Shown here: in pieces, positions 9,098 through 19,888 of the stretch | Layout: each line of letters begins with the position of its first letter | Numbering within the stretch: the stretch's first letter is position 1 | Assembly: GCA_965219955.1 (NCBI GenBank) | Contig: OZ244799.1 | Coordinates: forward strand, 3,584,001-3,648,000 | Length of the DNA stretch: 64,000 nt | From: a bacterium | GTDB lineage: Bacteria; UBA8248 | Direction of reading: 5' to 3' | The notes under the pieces: model-generated | Database searches by the model: none | What the model was told of the DNA's origin: nothing | What the model saw: the letters and a program-made list of their open reading frames with translations, nothing else | Translations under genes and position numbers: made by a program

Positions 9098-9649
9098 CTA
9101 AATTTTATGATTCATCTCATGGACCAAGAGCGCCAACTTCAAAGATACGCTGCTTGCGAATCCACCGAGCTCGCCCGAGCCCGCGATGACCCGATGTCAT
9201 GGTATTACAAGAGGAACGGGATTTCTATGAAGCGCCTGGCCGACGGCGCGTGATGCTTTCGGGTTTCCGATTTCCTTCGCGACCCAGCCATAATTGCGCG
9301 TCTCTCCGTATGGAATTTCTTCCGTCTTCCTCAGCACTTTTTCCATAAAAGGCGTGAGAGCAGAGAGGTCCGTTTTCAATCTGAAACTTTTTCGCGCGCC
9401 GCTTAGATATTCTTCTATCTCTTTTGAAGCTCGACGATTCAACGGTGTTGATTGCTCCCTCGCATGATTCGCCAAGAGAGGTTTTTCTACGCCATGCAAC
9501 ATTCTTATTTCCGCAATACCTTCATCCGATACGAACACGGAGAATTCCGCATGTACTTTCTGGAGCCAATCGGCAACATGATTTTCCAGCGATTCCCCGT
9601 CTTGTTGGAACAATTCAACCTGCCGCCACTTATCTGCCAGGCGCGCCAT
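9098..9649 (-). CDS. ogt: Methylated-DNA--protein-cysteine methyltransferase with probable selenocysteine at the active site
   Basis: Reads IPYGETRNY...ASRAVGQALHRNPVPLVIP-TGA-HRVIAGSGELGGFASSVSLKLALLVHE. The TGA at 9197-9199 replaces the Cys of PCHR and the frame continues to TAG 9098. Confidence 0.85.
9163..9188 (-). promoter_or_regulatory. Putative bacterial SECIS element (ogt)
   Basis: Hairpin GGGCTC-[GGGC]-GAGCTC with lower stem CATC/GGTG; the G-initiated loop sits at +21 from the TGA. Confidence 0.65.
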
Positions 9650-12024: not shown

Positions 12025-12098
12025 GTCTTGTCACAATGAACAAAAAGCCCGTCCCCTAAGGGACAGGCTCGATACTGCAAGTAAGATTAGGCGTCTTT

Positions 12099-12881
12099 TT
12101 ATTCTCCGGTAAAAACAGGTTTCCTCTTCTCTTTGAACGCCTGCAGCGCCTCGGCGAAATCCCTGGTGTGATTCAACGGCAACCTGTGGGCGTTCGAAAA
12201 TTCGATAGCCTGAGCGAGCGGCATATCGAGCGTCTGATCGATCACTTTTTTCGCGCCACGAACACCCAAGGGGCCATTGTCTCTGATCCGCTCCGCGATG
12301 GAAGTGGCTTCATCCATCAACACATCCAGCGGATGCGCTTTGTTCACCAAACCGATGCGCTCGGCTTCTTTTCCATCGATTCGTTTGCTCGTGTAAACCA
12401 ACTCTTTCGCCTGACCGGCCGGCATTACCCTTTGAAGCCAGACCACGCCGCCGGCCCCGGGGAAAATACCCAAACTGCATTCCGGGAAACAAAGAGTGGC
12501 TTCTTCAGCAGCCAGCCTGATATCGCACACCAAGGTAATTTCCACGCCCCAGCCGAATGTATGGCCGTTGATGGCGGCGATGGTGGGCATGGGCAAGCGC
12601 TCCCATAACGATGTCGCCGCCATCACATAGCGCTGATATTGATCGGCCATCTCTTTCGTATGGGTAGTGCTTTCTTTCAGGTCGCGGCCCGTGCTGAAAC
12701 CACGTCCCTCTCCTGTGAGAATGACCACCCGCACATCTTGCGCGTCGGCCAAAGTTCGCGTCAATTCCACGAATTCTTCCGCCATCTTGAAACTGATTGC
12801 GTTCAGACTCTCCGGACGGTTGAACTTCACTACCGCCAATCCATCTTCTTCCGTATAGGATAATGTTTCAAATTCGCGCAC
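12099..12881 (-). CDS. Enoyl-CoA hydratase/isomerase family protein
   Basis: NRPESLNA, FSTGRDL, GWGVEI, FPECSLG, AFKEKRKPVFTG; RBS AGGAGG before GTG 12881. Confidence 0.92.
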   Translation of the reverse strand: MREFETLSYTEEDGLAVVKFNRPESLNAISFKMAEEFVELTRTLADAQDVRVVILTGEGRGFSTGRDLKESTTHTKEMADQYQRYVMAATSLWERLPMPTIAAINGHTFGWGVEITLVCDIRLAAEEATLCFPECSLGIFPGAGGVVWLQRVMPAGQAKELVYTSKRIDGKEAERIGLVNKAHPLDVLMDEATSIAERIRDNGPLGVRGAKKVIDQTLDMPLAQAIEFSNAHRLPLNHTRDFAEALQAFKEKRKPVFTGE

Positions 12882-12920
12882 GTGCCCCTCCTGGGAAATA
12901 CTTTTTCTCAATAATTCGGA

Positions 12921-13451
12921 TCAGCTTTTCAGGTGGCTGGCCACTTCTTCGACAAACTTCAGCGTCGTGTCTCTCATTTCATCGGGCTGCAAATTACTGA
13001 CCGGGTGAGGCAACTGAATATAAGGATGCCCTTCCATGCCCTTGCCACGGAATTGAAAGTCCGCCGCGTTCTTGAACGCCTCGGTGATGATGGTCGTTGA
13101 AGGAATGCCCCGTTTTTCAAATTCAACCGTGTCGTGCACACTGCACAACGTGCAGGAGCCTCAGCCTCCCAATGCGGCTATCGCCACATCCACCTCCTGG
13201 GCCATTTCTTCGATCATTTCATCAGTGGCCGGCTTCGAGTAATGTTCTTTTCGCCTCGAAATGACTCTGGCGACATCGTATTGCTCACGGAGGGCATTCC
13301 CCAGGGTCTCCAAAATGATATCCGCTTGTTCTTTGGTGTTATCGAGGAGCCCTACCACCTTTCCCGAAAGATCGCCGGGCCGTTGCGCAAGCACGATTCG
13401 CGCGGCCGACCCTCCCGCCGTCGGATCGATGAATCCCATTCCGTTCGCCAT
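12921..13451 (-). CDS. UGSC family selenoprotein (single CDS read through TGA 13161-13163)
   Basis: Track ORFs 13161-13490 and 12921-13148 are in the same frame and join as AIAALGG-TGA-GSCTLCSVHDTVEFEKRGIPS. RBS GGAG before ATG 13451. Confidence 0.88.
13131..13149 (-). promoter_or_regulatory. Putative bacterial SECIS element (UGSC protein)
   Basis: 8-bp stem GTTGTGCA/TGCACGAC with a GTG loop at +20 from the TGA (GU-initiated loop). Confidence 0.7.
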
Positions 13452-13645
13452 GGTTTTCTCCAAATGATAGGTGAATGCAACCGAAACCAAATCATATCCC
13501 GCAATTCATTCCTTGTCTACGATATCAACTCTTTCGATTTTCCCATGAAAATGCGAATGATGTTTTATCCGCTTCTCAGATTCGCGGAATTTTGGCAAAA
13601 TCAAGTCTAATTCACGGCAATCCTCTTACCTTAAGGAGCAAACAA

Positions 13646-15907
13646 ATGGCCGATTACGATATCATCGGCAAGTCGAATGTCCGATACGATGCTATCCCGA
13701 AAGCAGATGGCTCCATGCCCTACGGAGAAGACGCGATCCCTGCAGGCGCTTTGCAGTGCGGCGTGCTGTTTACGCCCGTCCCCGTAGGCCGCCTCAAAAA
13801 GCTCGACACTTCCAAAGCCGAAAAAATCCCGGGCGTAGTCGCCATTCTGACCGCAAAGGACATTCCGGGCACAAACGCGCGATTCGGCTCCGGCACGCCG
13901 GGCCTGCCACATCAGCCCGTGCTGGTTGAGGATAAAATTGAATTTACCGGAGACGCTCTCGCCATCGTAGGCGCCGAAAACAGAGAAGCGCTTGATGCCG
14001 CGATAGCTGCGATCGAATTGGAAATCGAGGCGGAGGAGGGCGTGTGGACAACGCGTCACGATGAAACTAGCGCCGAGAAACGACAAGCGTGTGACTTTGA
14101 AGCTACACGTGGAGACGTAAAAAGAGCGTTTGACGAAGCCGACGTGGTGATTGAGAAAACATACACCACACAACTTGCTGAACACGCCTTCCTGGAACCT
14201 GCTTCCGGTACTTCCTGGATGGAGGAAGACGGCGTCATCACCATCCGCGTCGGCACACAGCTCATTGAATACTATCGCGCCATTGCGGCGATTTTAGGAA
14301 TCTCGCACAGCCGCGTCCGCCACCTCGGCACTTATGTCGGCGGCGGATTCGGCGCCAAGGGCATGCTGACGGTGGAACCTTACCTGGCGCTGCTCACCTG
14401 GCATACGCAAAGACCCGCCGTAATGGTGTTGGGTCGCGAGCACGGCATCCGAAACACCTCGAAAAAACATCCTTTCTATATGAAGTACAAAACGGGAGCG
14501 ACCAAGGACGGGAAAATCTTGGCCGTACAGGCGGACATCGTGGGAGACGCAGGCGCATATCCGTATAAATCGAATCTATTCCTCCTGGGCGCCATGTGCA
14601 TCGCCGCAGGCCCGTACGATGTGCCCAACGCAAAAATACGCGCACACGGCTATCTCACCAACAATCCCATCACCAACGCGATGCGCGGTGTCGGATCGAA
14701 CCAAGTATGTTTCGCGTATGAGACCCAAATGAACCTGGTTGCAGACGCCATCGGGATGGATAAATATGAATTCAGGCGAAAAAATTTCATCCAGAAAAAC
14801 CAGGAACTGCCGACCGGACAGAAAATACCTTATGAACCGAACCTGGAAGGGTGTCTCGACGGCGCGCTTCAGGCTTTGGGCGAACCCACAGAACCAGGCC
14901 CGGGCAAACGCATTGGCAGGGCGGCGGCGGCGAACATCACCGGCTACGGAAGGCCGAATGACGACGCGAATGCGGCGGTTCACCTCGAGCCGGACGGCAG
15001 CGCCGTGGTCCGCGTGAGTGCGCCGGATATAGGCGCCGGCCAGGGCGCTACGCTTCAAAGCATCACGGCTGAAACCCTGGGACTCAGGCTCGACCAGGTT
15101 TCCACCCGCCTGTCCGATTCCGCCACAACACCGCTCTCGGGCATCACCGCAGGCTCCCGACAAACGCTTATGGCCGGGCACGCCGTTCGACTCGCCGCAG
15201 ATGAGGTTCGGAAAGCCGTTACCAAAGGCGCCGCTTCGTTGCTTGAAGCTGCGGAAGAGGATATTCGCGTAGGAGGCGGCGAGGCGTGGGTGGCCTCTGC
15301 TCCCGAGAGAAGAGTCGGCATCGGTCCTGCGGCCGGCGAAGCCAAAAAAATGGGTGAAGCGCTGCATTGCACGCATGGCTACAACATGCCGGGACATGAA
15401 TATGAGAATCCGGAGCGATACATGAATGGCATGGGCGGATGGTCGGACTACACATTCGGTGTTCATGCAAGCGAAGTGGAAGTCGACATCGAAACCGGCG
15501 AAGTGAATCTCTTGAAGCACGTCGCTTCCCATGACGTCGGGCGAGCTCTGAATCCTCAAAGCGTGGAGGGGCAATTCGAAGGCGGCGCGGTAATGGGAAT
15601 CGGCTATGCGCTGCACGAGGAAATCACCATGGTGGAAGGAGACTGTCGATCACAGAGCTTTCACGAGTATCTGATCCCCACCTCCTCGGATATCGGCGAG
15701 TTTGAGTCCGTTGTTCTTGAATGCGGGGAAGGGGCGGGTCCATATGGCGCACGCGGCGTCGGAGAACCTCCGTGCAATAACGCGCCGGCCGCTGTCGCCC
15801 TCGCCATCAACGATGCGATAGGCACGGAGGTCTACGACCTGCCCATCACGCCCGAGCGTGTCTGCTGGGCGGTAACAAAGAAAAACGGTAAAAGCAACGG
15901 CCATTAA
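13646..15907 (+). CDS. Xanthine dehydrogenase family molybdopterin-binding subunit
   Basis: EHAFLEP, VGGGFGAKG, AMRGVG, DIGAGQG, GQFEGG, GARGVGEPP; RBS AAGGAG before ATG 13646. Confidence 0.93.
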   Translation: MADYDIIGKSNVRYDAIPKADGSMPYGEDAIPAGALQCGVLFTPVPVGRLKKLDTSKAEKIPGVVAILTAKDIPGTNARFGSGTPGLPHQPVLVEDKIEFTGDALAIVGAENREALDAAIAAIELEIEAEEGVWTTRHDETSAEKRQACDFEATRGDVKRAFDEADVVIEKTYTTQLAEHAFLEPASGTSWMEEDGVITIRVGTQLIEYYRAIAAILGISHSRVRHLGTYVGGGFGAKGMLTVEPYLALLTWHTQRPAVMVLGREHGIRNTSKKHPFYMKYKTGATKDGKILAVQADIVGDAGAYPYKSNLFLLGAMCIAAGPYDVPNAKIRAHGYLTNNPITNAMRGVGSNQVCFAYETQMNLVADAIGMDKYEFRRKNFIQKNQELPTGQKIPYEPNLEGCLDGALQALGEPTEPGPGKRIGRAAAANITGYGRPNDDANAAVHLEPDGSAVVRVSAPDIGAGQGATLQSITAETLGLRLDQVSTRLSDSATTPLSGITAGSRQTLMAGHAVRLAADEVRKAVTKGAASLLEAAEEDIRVGGGEAWVASAPERRVGIGPAAGEAKKMGEALHCTHGYNMPGHEYENPERYMNGMGGWSDYTFGVHASEVEVDIETGEVNLLKHVASHDVGRALNPQSVEGQFEGGAVMGIGYALHEEITMVEGDCRSQSFHEYLIPTSSDIGEFESVVLECGEGAGPYGARGVGEPPCNNAPAAVALAINDAIGTEVYDLPITPERVCWAVTKKNGKSNGH

Positions 15908-17642
15908 CCCGGATATTTCACCGACAAATGGCATGGGGCCTCTGAATGTCGGATAATGTGAGTTGTCTCAATAACTTACACCCGTCCGACAGAGAGGCCC
16001 CATGGATACGCATTGTACACCGGAACAACTTCACTTTCACCCCCACGGAAGACGCGAGGTCATCGCCCGATTCGACGGCGGACGGATCACGTCGGACGCC
16101 GGCGGGGTGCTGCTTCGCGAGACGGATCTCCGCCTGGGTCTGATGGCTCGTCTGGCGCGGTGTTTTCGTGATTGCCGCAAGCCCGGCAGCGTGGAGCACC
16201 CGGTGCGCTCGCTGGCGGCGCAGCGGGTGTACGCGCTGGCGCTGGGCTACGAGGACCTGAACGACCACGAGGATTTGCGCCGCGACAGGTTGCTGGCGCT
16301 GCTGGTGGGCAAGCGGGACCTGACGGGAGCCGGGCGGGTTCGCCTTCGGGACCGCGGCTCTCCGCTGGCCGCATCGAGTACGCTGAACCGCCTGGAGTTG
16401 GGCGGCGCCGAGGCGGCGACGGATCGCTACAAGCGCATCGCTGCGGACTTCGAGGCGATGGACCGCCTGCTGGTGGACGTGTTCATGGAGTCTTACGCCG
16501 AACCGCCCGAAGAGATATGGCTGGACCTCGACGCCACGGACGACCCCCTGCACGGTCGCCAGGAGGGGCGCTTCTTCCACGGCTATTACGGCCGCTACTG
16601 TTATCTGCCGCTCTACGTCTTCTGCGGCGCGCATCTGCTGTGCGCGCGGCTGCGCCGCTCGAACGTCGACGCCTCGGCCGGCAGCGAGGAGGAGTTGGCG
16701 CGGATCGTGGCGCAGGTCCGCAGGCGCTGGCCGCGTACGCGGGTCGTGGTTCGCGGCGACTCGGGTTTTTGCCGCGAGCCGTTGATGCGCTGGTGCGAGG
16801 AGAACGGCGTCGGCTACGTGTTCGGCATGGCGCGCAACGCGCGGCTGGTGCGGGCGATTGGCCGGGACCTCTACCGGGCCGAGGTCGTCTGTCGCCGCAC
16901 GGGTGAGCCGGCGCGCCGGTATCGCGACTTCCGCTATCGAACGCGCAAGAGCTGGTCCAGAACCCGCCGGGTGGTGGGCAAGGCGCAATACCTGCCCAGG
17001 GGGGCGAACCCGCGGTTCGTGGTCACCAATCTCCGCCCCCGGCGGGCCGGCGCCAGACGCCTCTACGAAGAACTCTACTGCGCCCGGGGAGAGATGGAGA
17101 ACCGCATCAAGGAACAGCAACTCGGCCTGTTCGCCGACCGCACCAGCAGCGCCACCATGAGGGCCAATCAGTTGCGGCTCTACTTCGCCTCCTTCGCCTA
17201 CGTCCTGATGCACGGACTCCGGCGCCTGGGGCTGGCGGGCACGACATGCGCCAGGGCCCAGTGCGCAACGATCCGGCTGAAACTGCTCAAGATCGGCGCC
17301 CGCGTGAGGGTCAGCGTGCGCAAGGTCCGGCTGTCTATCTCCGAGGCCTGGCCCCATGCGGCGCTCTTCGAAAAGGTAGTGAACAACCTGCGTACGCACC
17401 CGCCCTGGCCGACGGCGGGGGAGAGTGACTGAGCGTAGAATCGGAGCGACATAGGTTGCCGCAGCGGGAAACCTGCGCCTGCGCGTCGGCCGGCACTCCC
17501 CGAAAGCCTTCGAAATCGACGAAAAAGCGCCGCTCGGGCGCCGTGCGTCATCGTATCGCGCCGACGAAGAAGGCCGCCTCCCGAATCAAGCCGTCCACGA
17601 CTTCAAATCAGGCCGTTCCAAAGCCTCGGTGAAATATCCGGG
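15908..17642 (+). mobile_element. IS1380 family insertion sequence, complete (1735 bp)
   Basis: Perfect 17-bp terminal IRs CCCGGATATTTCACCGA (15908-15924 and 17626-17642), flanked by TTAA direct repeats (15904-15907 and 17643-17646). Confidence 0.93.
16002..17432 (+). CDS. IS1380 family transposase
   Basis: FDGGRITSDAG, LDLDATDDPLHGRQEG, RGDSGF, YCARGEMENRIKEQQ. Confidence 0.95.
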   Translation: MDTHCTPEQLHFHPHGRREVIARFDGGRITSDAGGVLLRETDLRLGLMARLARCFRDCRKPGSVEHPVRSLAAQRVYALALGYEDLNDHEDLRRDRLLALLVGKRDLTGAGRVRLRDRGSPLAASSTLNRLELGGAEAATDRYKRIAADFEAMDRLLVDVFMESYAEPPEEIWLDLDATDDPLHGRQEGRFFHGYYGRYCYLPLYVFCGAHLLCARLRRSNVDASAGSEEELARIVAQVRRRWPRTRVVVRGDSGFCREPLMRWCEENGVGYVFGMARNARLVRAIGRDLYRAEVVCRRTGEPARRYRDFRYRTRKSWSRTRRVVGKAQYLPRGANPRFVVTNLRPRRAGARRLYEELYCARGEMENRIKEQQLGLFADRTSSATMRANQLRLYFASFAYVLMHGLRRLGLAGTTCARAQCATIRLKLLKIGARVRVSVRKVRLSISEAWPHAALFEKVVNNLRTHPPWPTAGESD

Positions 17643-17660
17643 TTAACAGGCTTCAATCAC

Positions 17661-17694
17661 AAAAGAGCCCCGGCATTATTGTCGGGGCTCTTTT
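17661..17694. terminator. Bidirectional rho-independent terminator
   Basis: AAAAGAGCCCCGGCA-TTAT-TGTCGGGGCTCTTTT between convergent units. Confidence 0.8.
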
Positions 17695-17816: not shown

Positions 17817-18836
17817 TCACACATCAAATTTTTTTGTCACGGCCCGACACGCCACGGTGATCCCGTGCATGACCATGCTGGAGGGTGAACCCCTGCTTCC
17901 CGCGACGATTAAATGAAGGTCTTCGGGATCGCCAACCGCAGGCACAAAAAAATCATCATCGTTCACATCCACGGGAAACGGCCAGCGATCCGCGCCTTTC
18001 TCTCCCCTCCAGATACCGCCGCGCTTGATATCCCCGATAGTGCGCCCACCCATTTCCAGTAATTTTTGATGGACATCACTGCGAGTCATTCCGGCGTCAG
18101 CGCAAAGATGCGCATGTTGCGCGCCCAGGACAACCGCCATATCTGCTTGCCGATACATATTGGGCCCACCCAAGGCGGACATCATATCGGCAACCGTCGT
18201 CAGAAGCCGGTCGGGCGTCAGGCTCGCATCGTCCCATACCTGCACGGGTCCTTCGAGTGGAATCATGGTCACCACGCTATCGTTCTTTGAAAACCCTTTG
18301 GATTCCGCATACGACTCCCAGGGAGATTCCTCCTCGTTCTCCATGATGCAAAAAGTGTTTCGCCAGGGGCCGCCAAAACCGCCGAGACAGGTGATACCGG
18401 GAATGCCTCCCCCCACGTTCATCATGATGAGCCGCACGGCGCGGCCGATGGTCAGATTCGCGCGAAAACCGGGACCCATGCAGCCCACTCCGCCGTGCAG
18501 TCCGATCTCCTTTGCGTAGGGACCATTAACCAATAGAAAAGGAGCGCCCGCGCTTGTTGTGGCCTGAATCAGATTTACGTTGAAACGCTCATCAAGAAGC
18601 GCCTCCAGCCCGGCTATCAAAACCGGCATGTATTCGGGCTTGCAACCCGCCATCACGGCATGGGCCGCCACGCTTTGAATGCTGAGTTCCCCGCCCGCCG
18701 GAGCCACTTGGCCAAGCACTTCGCCCGGCTCCCTTGTCGTTCCTGTGAGCATCAAGCCAATTCTCTCTTCCGTGGGCGTCACGACAGGCAGGCCGTCCGA
18801 CCATTCCTTGTCAAAGAAAAACTCAAACTCATCCAT
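17817..18836 (-). CDS. UGSC-partner 'DGLP' family protein, paralog 4
   Basis: WSDGLPVVTPTEER, AHAVMAGCKPEY, GPGFRANLTIGRA, ENEEESPW. Confidence 0.8.
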   Translation of the reverse strand: MDEFEFFFDKEWSDGLPVVTPTEERIGLMLTGTTREPGEVLGQVAPAGGELSIQSVAAHAVMAGCKPEYMPVLIAGLEALLDERFNVNLIQATTSAGAPFLLVNGPYAKEIGLHGGVGCMGPGFRANLTIGRAVRLIMMNVGGGIPGITCLGGFGGPWRNTFCIMENEEESPWESYAESKGFSKNDSVVTMIPLEGPVQVWDDASLTPDRLLTTVADMMSALGGPNMYRQADMAVVLGAQHAHLCADAGMTRSDVHQKLLEMGGRTIGDIKRGGIWRGEKGADRWPFPVDVNDDDFFVPAVGDPEDLHLIVAGSRGSPSSMVMHGITVACRAVTKKFDV

Positions 18837-18871: not shown

Positions 18872-19888
18872 TTATGGTTCATATTCGATTGAGACCGCCT
18901 CACTGCCATCCACCCAGCCGGGCATGACGGCCGTCACCGGGCCGGGCGTACCCCCTGCGACGAGAAGAATCAGATCTTCTTCATCCTTAATCGCCGGTAC
19001 CAGATACGAATCATCCTGCAGGTTCACGTCAAATGGCCACTTGGCTGCCATCTCATCACGCCAATAGCCTGATTTTTTCAGCTCTCCAAGGGGCTTTCGC
19101 GCAAGCTCCATGATTCGGCGATGGACATCTTCCTTACTTAAACCAGCCTCTGCGCACATGCGCGCATGATCCGGACCCAAAGCAACGACCACCTGGGTTT
19201 TCAGCCATATATTGAGCGAACCCAAGGTCGATATTTTATCCGCAAGGCCCACGAAAAAAGATTCCGGCTCTTTTGAATAATCGTCGATATAGCCTTGAGG
19301 CGCTTCCGTCATCACGGCGGTCACGACATCTTCATCCTGCTGAAAGCCCTTCGTGACGGACAATGGCTCCCAGGGGCTTTCCGCTTCGTTCTCGGCGATG
19401 CAAAACGTATATCTGGCGGGCGAGCCGAACGTGCTCATCGAGGCGGAAACCGGCACACCGCCGCCCAGGTTCATGAGTATTAACCGGATGGCGCGTCCAA
19501 TCGTCGCATTCGCCCGAAAACCCGGCCCGAAGCAACCTGTGCCGCCATGCAGGCCGATTTTTTTCGCATACGGCCCGTTCACGATGATCAGAGGGGCCGC
19601 GCTGTGCATGGTGCCCTGTACGCCGTTCAAATTGAGTTTTGGCGCAAGGAGCGCTCCAAGCCCTGCAATAACAAGGGGCAAATACGAAGGCTCACACCCC
19701 GCCATCACGGCGTGCGCGGCAATCGCCTCCACGCTCGCCTCCCCCATGAGGGGCGGCACCAAACCGATAATTTCCGAGGTTTCAAGCCTCGTACCCGAAA
19801 ACATGGCGGCCATTCGTTCTTCTGTAGGGGGAATTACCGGCAGGCCGTCCGACCAGGGTTTTTGAAAGAAAAACTCGAATTCATCCAT
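18872..19888 (-). CDS. UGSC-partner 'DGLP' family protein, paralog 3
   Basis: WSDGLPVIPPTEER, AHAVMAGC, GCFGPGFRANATIGRA, CIAENEAESPW. Confidence 0.8.
   Translation of the reverse strand: MDEFEFFFQKPWSDGLPVIPPTEERMAAMFSGTRLETSEIIGLVPPLMGEASVEAIAAHAVMAGCEPSYLPLVIAGLGALLAPKLNLNGVQGTMHSAAPLIIVNGPYAKKIGLHGGTGCFGPGFRANATIGRAIRLILMNLGGGVPVSASMSTFGSPARYTFCIAENEAESPWEPLSVTKGFQQDEDVVTAVMTEAPQGYIDDYSKEPESFFVGLADKISTLGSLNIWLKTQVVVALGPDHARMCAEAGLSKEDVHRRIMELARKPLGELKKSGYWRDEMAAKWPFDVNLQDDSYLVPAIKDEEDLILLVAGGTPGPVTAVMPGWVDGSEAVSIEYEP

Follow-up and report, generated by a model that had tools for sequence, protein, structure and literature searches.

A UGSC-family selenoprotein gene and its putative partner enzyme family in a UBA8248 bacterium

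What is encoded by two reading frames that meet in phase at a TGA, and with which proteins would the product work? The question is raised by a locus in a window of 64,000 nucleotides (the whole stretch of DNA analysed here: contig OZ244799.1, positions 3,584,001 to 3,648,000, assembly GCA_965219955.1, a bacterium of lineage UBA8248), where two such open reading frames (ORFs) occupy positions 12921-13451 of the minus strand. A preliminary description had taken them for a hidden selenoprotein whose U-G-S-C-x-x-C motif resembles the catalytic segment of GrdB/PrdB, and had proposed a stand-alone selenocysteine (Sec) nucleophile or a redox subunit of a reductase-like complex. Judged by profiles and alignments, the gene is a member of the known UGSC selenoprotein family and not a new selenoprotein; the interesting part is the wider pairing of that family with proteins of ~340 residues. 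Our best overall explanation, which we hold to be somewhat better than an even bet, is that the UGSC selenoprotein passes electrons to these ~340-residue partner enzymes.

One gene read through a UGA codon

The features on which the reading of the gene depends are the following.

12921..13451, minus strand: UGSC-family selenoprotein gene, 176 codons plus stop, with Sec as codon 97 (read-through translation, Pfam and NCBIfam)
13161..13163, minus strand: in-frame UGA read as selenocysteine, codon 97 (TGA column common to 8/8 paralogs of the genome)
13131..13149, minus strand: hairpin resembling a selenocysteine insertion sequence (SECIS), 8-bp stem and GUG loop (fold, paralogs and covariation)
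13458..13461, minus strand: ribosome-binding site GGAG, 6 nt ahead of the ATG, read from the sequence

Once the TGA at 13163-13161 is decoded, a single minus-strand frame runs from the ATG at 13451 to the terminal TGA at 12923-12921. Read-through translation bore out the ALGG-U junction at which the preliminary description had joined the two ORFs: the protein reads ...AIAALGG-U-GSCTLCSVHDTVEFEKRGIPSTTIIT... across the junction, with GG-U-GSC at codons 95-100 and GG-U-GSCTLCSVHDTVEFEK as the Sec-spanning stretch. The translation matched Pfam PF24696 (UGSC) over profile positions 3-171 of 172 (174.1 bits against a cut-off of 25, E 3.7e-51) and NCBIfam NF041046, "UGSC family (seleno)protein" (149.9 bits against a cut-off of 125), so that the search against UGSC profiles suggested earlier gave scores above both cut-offs. 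Because both matches span the TGA, the two halves belong to one domain.

Comparison with homologs points the same way. The genome holds eight UGSC genes at 26-36% protein identity, each with one in-frame TGA, and the Sec column is invariant among them. An ortholog from Burkholderiales, 65% identical, has its TGA at the same column, and in Mycobacterium gordonae the family occurs as an uninterrupted ORF with a Cys aligned to Sec97. Sec or Cys is kept at this column in the paralogs and at other loci as well, and naturally occurring Cys forms are each encoded by one continuous ORF, not by two separately initiated halves. Among 51 species genomes of the window's phylum, UGSC was found in 43, with 2-9 matches each; all 150 among the matches listed carry one TGA, and there were 89 further matches. 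The UxxCxxC motif named in the preliminary description is present in this gene and is not family-wide, the first Cys after Sec being found in 7/8 of the genome's paralogs and the second in 3/8. We conclude from these alignments that the two ORFs form a single gene, whose product is a selenocysteine protein, and the idea of a hidden selenoprotein stands.

The preliminary description had also pointed to an 8-bp stem with a GU-initiated loop at +20, which folding confirmed. The hairpin, GUUGUGCA-GUG-UGCACGAC, lies 11 nt downstream of the UGA; counted from that codon, the G of the loop is base 20. E. coli SelB depends on an upper stem-loop whose loop contains G and U and which is 11 nt away from the UGA. 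Folding energy does not single the hairpin out (z-score 0.04 for a 71-nt stretch); it is supported because of comparison across genes, not because of its energy. It lies in the same register in 8/8 UGSC paralogs of the genome. For covariation we aligned the 48 nt from the TGA of these 8 genes and of 66 distinct Sec sites from other organisms (n=74), having excluded one row whose TGA is the terminal stop codon. Pairing was formed in 86.8% of the cells, against 79.5% in shuffles (73 distinct rows), and none of 500 shuffles matched the observed covariation values; when the partner strand was slid out of register, pairing fell to 15-62%. Six of the eight pairs show changes on both sides. At 21:27, 47 rows have C-G and 23 have G-C, a switch that can be seen in the codons: UGG (Trp) is accompanied by a C-ending codon for Ile, Val or Leu, and UGC (Cys) by GUG. 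In the loop, G23 and U24 reach at least 90% conservation. Only the inner six pairs are well conserved, pairs 15:33 and 16:32 forming in ~55% of rows. An Rfam scan around the gene returned no SECIS or other family, with the only hits at E 1.5 and 8.1, and Rfam may hold no bacterial SECIS model.

In four RNA-library runs, many contigs of other genes match the window only over this 33-39-nt block of Sec codon and hairpin (13131-13163) and diverge on both of its flanks; since the matches are confined to it, the block is the most conserved part of the family at the DNA level. A UGSC subfamily has H-U-G-S-S-x-P-W instead of U-G-S-C (L036:7977-8579, plus strand, and also loci L105, L107 and L132), and in the last three the sequence after the TGA departs from the usual UGSC hairpin core.

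The machinery for decoding the codon is complete: the genome has a tRNA-Sec (Rfam, 75.9 bits; anticodon tca by ARAGORN), SelA (578 bits), SelB (390 bits) and SelD (333 bits), and selD itself contains a TGA. With eight UGSC genes, a grd cluster, PrdB-like genes and selD, the genome is, on this sequence evidence, rich in selenoproteins.

UGSC has a history. The selenoprotein family was named "UGSC-containing protein" in 2007-2008 (Zhang & Gladyshev; PMC1976440, PMC2398784), and the available parts of these papers class it as a selenoprotein of unknown function (PMC1976440), count 255 Sec forms against 21 Cys forms in the Global Ocean Sampling (GOS) data (Table 2, PMC2398784), propose a likely thioredoxin-like fold with a thioredoxin-like redox role, and mention one "UGSC/Unknown_1" fusion (both PMC2398784). 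In the same paper, as far as its available parts go, UGSC is among the most abundant selenoprotein families of ocean and freshwater metagenomes (PMC2398784). A 2016 survey, in the parts available, counted 33 genes in 26 organisms, and the accessible sections of two reviews of 2022 and 2026 list UGSC with no function (PMC9312934, PMC13188914). The available portions of the UGSC selenoprotein literature describe no partner protein beyond the UGSC/Unknown_1 fusion. The gene studied here agrees with PF24696/NF041046 along the full profile, with Sec in the [G/D]-U-G-S-C motif, and shows no differences of its own from the family, whose Cys forms occur in organisms such as Mycobacterium and Candidimonas. 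It is an ordinary member; gene callers routinely split such genes, and its annotation should join the halves.

A partner family beside and fused to UGSC

One of the genome's UGSC paralogs (L038:6918-8528, minus strand) encodes a fusion of 536 residues, in which UGSC is followed by a C-terminal domain of ~350 residues that has no match in Pfam or NCBIfam. A tblastn search with this domain found 15 copies of the partner family in the genome. Seven of the eight UGSC genes have a partner copy no more than 1.7 kb away, eight copies in all, one of them in the fusion itself; the remaining UGSC gene is the one at 12921-13451, and the window holds four partner genes on its strand.

17817..18836, minus strand: partner gene P1, 339 aa (tblastn; AlphaFold model with a predicted local distance difference test, pLDDT, of 90.8)
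18872..19888, minus strand: partner gene P2, 338 aa, 50% identity to P1
19930..20964, minus strand: partner gene P3, 344 aa, 54% identity to P1
20987..22021, minus strand: partner gene P4, 344 aa, 54% identity to P1

Three further partner genes are orphans (G000:C1:874864-875970, 2330217-2331248 and 2356197-2357225), with no UGSC gene within ~370 kb, so that partners (15) outnumber UGSC genes (8).

We then looked at 80 loci seeded with the partner alignment, which are not phylogenetically independent and come from Burkholderiales, Nitrospinota, Methylomirabilota, Dehalococcoidia, Binatia, Entotheonella, Acidimicrobiia, Mycobacterium, Candidimonas, Sphingomonas, Henriciella and others. At 69 of the 80 the partner has a UGSC gene as its immediate same-strand neighbour, with TGA in the Sec column in 63 and Cys in 6 (L109, L112, L115 from Candidimonas nitroreducens, L117, L121 from Parapusillimonas granuli and L122 from Sphingomonas). 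In the Burkholderiales loci L068, L070, L076 and L077, a P1 ortholog (48-66% identity) is directly followed by a UGSC ortholog with the motif GG-U-GSCTLCSVHD. No third gene is shared by the 80 loci, and the commonest other neighbour cluster occurs in 12. Luciferase-like proteins and NHL were each found at 12 loci, TctC at 11, CoA-transferase III at 9, SDR and TauD at 8 each, enoyl-CoA hydratase (ECH) at 7, and FMN_dh and acyl-CoA dehydrogenase (ACAD) at 6 each. By gene order, UGSC has a near-obligate partner enzyme family: the fusion partner seen here, which may be the Unknown_1 of the single published fusion, is a near-obligate neighbour. The preliminary description's "stand-alone" is misleading, as UGSC is nearly always beside the partner enzyme or fused to it; its "redox subunit of a reductase-like complex" fits the evidence from the partner family and from its fusions.

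The family is large and unnamed. At E <=1e-3 at least 5,734 of 8,000 scored candidates belong to it, all called "hypothetical", and clustering at 50% identity gave 7,661 clusters at E <=1e-3 and 2,392 at E <=1e-30. Atlas look-ups gave clusters that are unnamed or carry only the automatic name "thiol-disulfide oxidoreductase". None of 33 members had a Pfam match better than E 0.04, and P1 had no NCBIfam match. The proteins are ~340 aa long with a conserved N-terminal DGLPxxxPT motif. Cys65, in the motif MAGC, is invariant in 33 sequences and present in at least 90% of 72; Arg132 and Glu166 are invariant in the 72, and Cys163 is kept in at least 90%.

The AlphaFold model of P1 (pLDDT 90.8; predicted template-modelling score, pTM, 0.90) led to no convincing relative in Foldseek, whose best match was a class I fumarate hydratase (E ~1e-4, TM score ~0.3, root-mean-square deviation >11 A). 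In VIA-align, Z stayed below 5 for all 48,161 chains (best 4.7), and sequence searches of solved structures found nothing for P1 (best E 0.71) or UGSC (best E 1). As modelled, the partner family has no clear fold relative; we do not claim a new fold.

Fusions of the partner domain were surveyed in the best 150 partner-family representatives, with Pfam run on those that carry extensions. An N-terminal extension of 180-230 aa is present in 22, being a full UGSC domain in 16, AhpC-TSA/Redoxin/Thioredoxin_8 in 3 and unrecognised in 3. Another 36 have an extension of 70-135 aa: 26 carry the post-TGA half of UGSC, one a beta domain of ferredoxin:thioredoxin reductase (FTR) and nine nothing recognised. 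The 26 are Sec fusions whose called gene begins after the TGA. Six representatives with longer C-terminal parts were scanned, and three of these end in the pre-TGA half of UGSC, the opposite domain order. An FTR-beta domain is fused to the partner N-terminally in P0295 and C-terminally in P0380, a pyridine-nucleotide-disulfide oxidoreductase domain is fused to it in P0276, and the partner domain itself is duplicated in tandem in 7 of the 150. A separate search with the L038 fusion found peroxiredoxin/redoxin domains in 15 of the 120 matches listed; C-x-T-C motifs occur in the redoxin fusions, whose linker has a conserved PGC. The alternative fusion partners are all disulfide-relay modules, and mainly for this reason we would assign the relay of electrons to UGSC and the enzymatic role to the partner.

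The redoxins offer one comparison. Thioredoxin-fold CxxC redoxins (AhpC-TSA/Redoxin/Thioredoxin_8, TlpA-like) take the same fused position ahead of the partner domain as UGSC, have, like it, a redox pair spaced by two residues, and would be likely to do the same job, reduction of the partner enzyme. UGSC differs from them in its predicted flavodoxin-like fold with five parallel strands and in having Sec for Cys, and, unlike them, one UGSC subfamily is without the second redox residue.

Layout and transcription of the locus

Around the UGSC gene and between it and P1, the window holds these features.

12045..12070, minus strand: terminator-like hairpin after the hydratase gene, 11-bp stem then a T run
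12099..12911, minus strand: enoyl-CoA hydratase gene (Pfam ECH_1, 203 bits; same order in 12/12 relatives)
13491..13519, minus strand: promoter-like site TAGACA-17-TATGAT, 10/12 consensus matches, weak (the scan gave 2 sites against 1.3 expected)
13646..15907, plus strand: xanthine-dehydrogenase (XDH)/aldehyde-oxidase-family molybdenum subunit gene, between UGSC and P1 (Pfam MoCoBD_1/2, Ald_Xan_dh_C)
15909..17641, plus strand: IS1380-family element, transposase at 16002-17432 (NF033539, 403 bits)
17661-17694: terminator-like inverted repeat between P1 and the IS1380 element

Along the minus strand the order is P4-P3-P2-P1 (22021-17817), the inverted repeat, the IS1380 element, the XDH-family gene, an intergenic region, UGSC and the hydratase. 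The order P4-P3-P2-P1, XDH, UGSC-ECH-ECH-orf127-ACAD is found again in 12/12 congeneric species, where P1 and UGSC are likewise separated by the XDH-family gene. The hydratase gene begins ~40 nt after UGSC, and beyond its strong terminator-like hairpin lie a second hydratase gene, an ORF of 127 codons, an acyl-CoA dehydrogenase gene and a methyltransferase gene. The promoter-like site falls in the 194-nt divergent intergenic region between UGSC and the XDH-family gene. The best NCBIfam match of the latter is pucD (412 bits, cut-off 783), followed by 4-hydroxybenzoyl-CoA reductase alpha (386 bits), all below cut-offs; no gene for an Fe-S or FAD subunit was found beside it among the ORFs scanned.

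The IS1380 element has perfect 16-bp terminal inverted repeats within arms at 15904-15924 and 17626-17646, with TTAA(C) flanks or duplication. It sits just past the stop of the XDH-family gene, ahead of the shared terminator hairpin. Its transposase is absent from the loci of 12/12 relatives, two of which show the empty site.

Two RNA-library contigs bear on transcription. One (X16, record 9) spans 12097-13432, crossing the TGA and covering UGSC and the hydratase; the other, from a second study (X20, record 22), covers 12913-13302 and bridges the TGA. Bins without cover at 13482-13595 in X10 and X16 are not evidence. These contigs favour, short of proving it, a transcript that crosses the TGA and runs on into the hydratase gene.

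The O6-methylguanine-DNA methyltransferase gene four genes downstream of UGSC (9098-9649, minus strand), which ORF calling had split, has an in-frame TGA at 9199-9197 (codon 151), exactly at the catalytic Cys of P-C-H-R (VIP-U-HRV), with 32 further codons in frame. This enzyme is a known selenoprotein family in the tables of two reviews, in the parts available (PMC13188914, PMC9312934).

A probable electron relay and its alternatives

How might UGSC and its partners work together? The UGSC model (pLDDT 91.2) is a three-layer alpha/beta sandwich of five parallel strands. The motif follows the third strand, and Sec97 lies between strand 89-95 and helix 98-113. The Foldseek matches listed for it are flavodoxin-like (best E 1.8e-4, TM score ~0.5), with no thioredoxin among them. 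The model does not bear out the published thioredoxin-like fold, and its flavodoxin-like architecture departs from the family's description; Sec at a helix N terminus expresses the same idea.

UGSC is probably a selenol/thiol electron relay. SelB and tRNA-Sec would decode UGA-97, guided by the hairpin 11 nt downstream. The Sec97/Cys100 pair would then cycle between selenol/thiol and selenenylsulfide, and UGSC would bind the partner enzymes P1-P4, where Sec (with Cys100 where present) would reduce a conserved Cys of the partner, if electrons flow in the direction that we infer. A system resembling thioredoxin reductase or ferredoxin:thioredoxin reductase might recharge UGSC. One UGSC would probably serve several partner paralogs that differ in their small-molecule substrates. 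The recurrent neighbours (acyl-CoA dehydrogenases, hydratases, CoA-transferase III, luciferase-like monooxygenases, TauD and TctC/TRAP transporters) lead us to guess at catabolism of small organic acids, possibly of organosulfur compounds, with acyl-CoA-linked compounds as a further candidate class.

GrdA (PF04723) offers an analogy. GrdA is the small selenoprotein that serves the substrate-specific larger proteins of glycine reductase. UGSC may likewise be a small Sec protein serving several larger substrate-specific proteins, at a ratio of UGSC to partner of 1:4 at this locus and 8:15 in the genome. The likeness is by analogy only: no sequence relation of GrdA to UGSC was found, and no carboxymethyl-type chemistry is implied.

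Several observations weigh against electron transfer from UGSC to the partner enzymes. At this locus the partner genes, although on the same strand as UGSC, are separated from it by 4.4-8.6 kb that include the opposite-strand XDH-family gene and the insertion sequence; UGSC appears to be in a transcription unit separate from P1-P4, yet the one-to-four set is conserved, and it is probably co-transcribed with the enoyl-CoA hydratase. The RNA-library contigs may stem from DNA and carry no information on Sec insertion, transcript ends or levels. Elsewhere, 11 of the 80 partner loci are without a UGSC gene (several of them cut by contig ends), and the thioredoxin-like motif WCGPC was found at only two of the 80, both times in apparently spurious frames. 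In P0228, a redoxin fusion, Cys65 of MAGC is replaced by Ala. The H-U-G-S-S subfamily (one paralog of this genome and loci L105, L107 and L132) has no Cys after Sec, so that a U-x-x-C selenenylsulfide cannot be universal. Lastly, the remote likeness to GrdB/PrdB seen in the alignments leaves room for a Sec that is directly catalytic.

That likeness is the basis of the strongest alternative, in which UGSC itself would be catalytic in the manner of PrdB: its selenolate would attack an atom of a substrate held by the partner and cleave a C-X bond, a neighbouring Cys would resolve the product, and the partner would be a substrate binder like PrdA/GrdE. The Sec-bearing region of GrdB does resemble UGSC. 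TIGR01917 (GrdB) matched residues 76-169 at profile positions 325-415 with E 4e-4, and hhalign of the 8 UGSC paralogs against the genome's 4 GrdB/PrdB-like proteins gave E 7.2e-5 over 69 columns, with Sec on Sec, GIPT on GIPT and a later HP on HP, at a probability of only 62.6%. What the two share is a strand-Sec-x-x-(Cys)-helix segment followed by E-x-x-G-I-P-T. The identity itself is to be rejected. All three selenoprotein B profiles scored (TIGR01917, TIGR01918 and TIGR04483) stayed below their cut-offs, with 19.4 bits against 602.2 for TIGR01917 and 13.1 against 65.45 and 11.9 against 300 for the other two; UGSC has no match to PF07355, the GRDB domain, and no GrdE/PrdA or GrdA neighbour. 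The partner family shows no similarity to GrdB/PrdB-like profiles.

The genome has its own grdA (TGA)-grdE-grdB-like cluster, ~2.3 Mb from the UGSC gene (G000:C1:1273988-1277141). Its grdA is the PF04723 match (1273988-1274425), and the genome's only matches of PF09338 and PF04723 together fall at 1273988-1275619, none beside UGSC. PF07355 matches there with 388.8 bits (1275837-1276874), in a grdB-like gene with a TGA and the motif AT-U-GTGT. A sequence search of solved structures with this GrdB-like protein returned spurious antibody rows only. The genome also has three short PrdB-like selenoprotein genes (L149, L150 and L151), with motifs U-P-L-C or U-G-L-C. For UGSC, the resemblance noted in the preliminary description holds as remote likeness of the Sec segment and fails as membership: this is not a GrdB/PrdB-type subunit, and the likeness is probably remote homology of one Sec-bearing module.

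The 15 partner paralogs in varied catabolic contexts (acyl-CoA dehydrogenases, CoA-transferase III, enoyl-CoA hydratases, luciferase-like monooxygenases) would also suit a catalytic UGSC, and they recall the glycine, sarcosine and betaine reductases, which have substrate-specific B proteins. The partner's dissimilarity to GrdB/PrdB-like proteins, with 0/33 members matching Pfam, and the low hhalign probability speak against it, and so does the presence of a CxxC redoxin, FTR-beta or a pyridine-nucleotide-disulfide oxidoreductase in the fused position, which points to a generic electron relay. We regard a catalytic UGSC as unlikely, at a little less than one chance in four.

Still less likely, with only a small share of our confidence, is a general antioxidant role, with UGSC acting as a thiol/selenol oxidoreductase that has no partner here and works perhaps with the co-transcribed acyl-CoA enzymes. 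Its position apart from P1-P4 and ahead of two enoyl-CoA hydratase genes and an acyl-CoA dehydrogenase gene, in 12/12 relatives, fits such a role, as does the thioredoxin-like redox role suggested in the available parts of PMC2398784. Set against this are the partner adjoining UGSC at 69 of 80 loci, the many natural fusions, and a predicted fold and listed Foldseek matches that are flavodoxin-like and not thioredoxin-like. In Burkholderiales, orthologs with 65% identity directly follow a P1 ortholog and lack the hydratase and dehydrogenase neighbours (no matches in L068-L079).

That the TGA is a true stop, leaving a pseudogene or two small genes, can be set aside as most improbable: gene callers do split such genes, and database entries of related fusions start after the TGA (~414 aa, 77% of the fusion), but both halves lie within a single domain profile, the TGA is kept in 8/8 paralogs at 26-36% identity and in all 150 among the phylum matches listed, the hairpin covaries, the Sec machinery is complete and Cys forms are uninterrupted ORFs.

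We return to electron transfer from UGSC to the partner enzymes. On a broader claim we are more hesitant and place it a little short of even: UGSC and the ~340-residue family may constitute a widespread, undescribed class of selenium-dependent reductases (thiol-dependent in the Cys forms), with UGSC as a shared shuttle and the partner paralogs as substrate-specific enzymes. If this is true, the genome would have 8 shuttles for 15 catalytic subunits, of which the locus would contribute a one-to-four set. To the family, the locus adds this conserved arrangement of one UGSC gene with four partners, together with RNA-library contigs across the recoded UGA. The Cys-form versions in culturable bacteria offer a route to a test. 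Collectively, the partner pairing and the fusions with disulfide-relay modules turn the "unknown function" of UGSC into a testable hypothesis of a two-component reductase.

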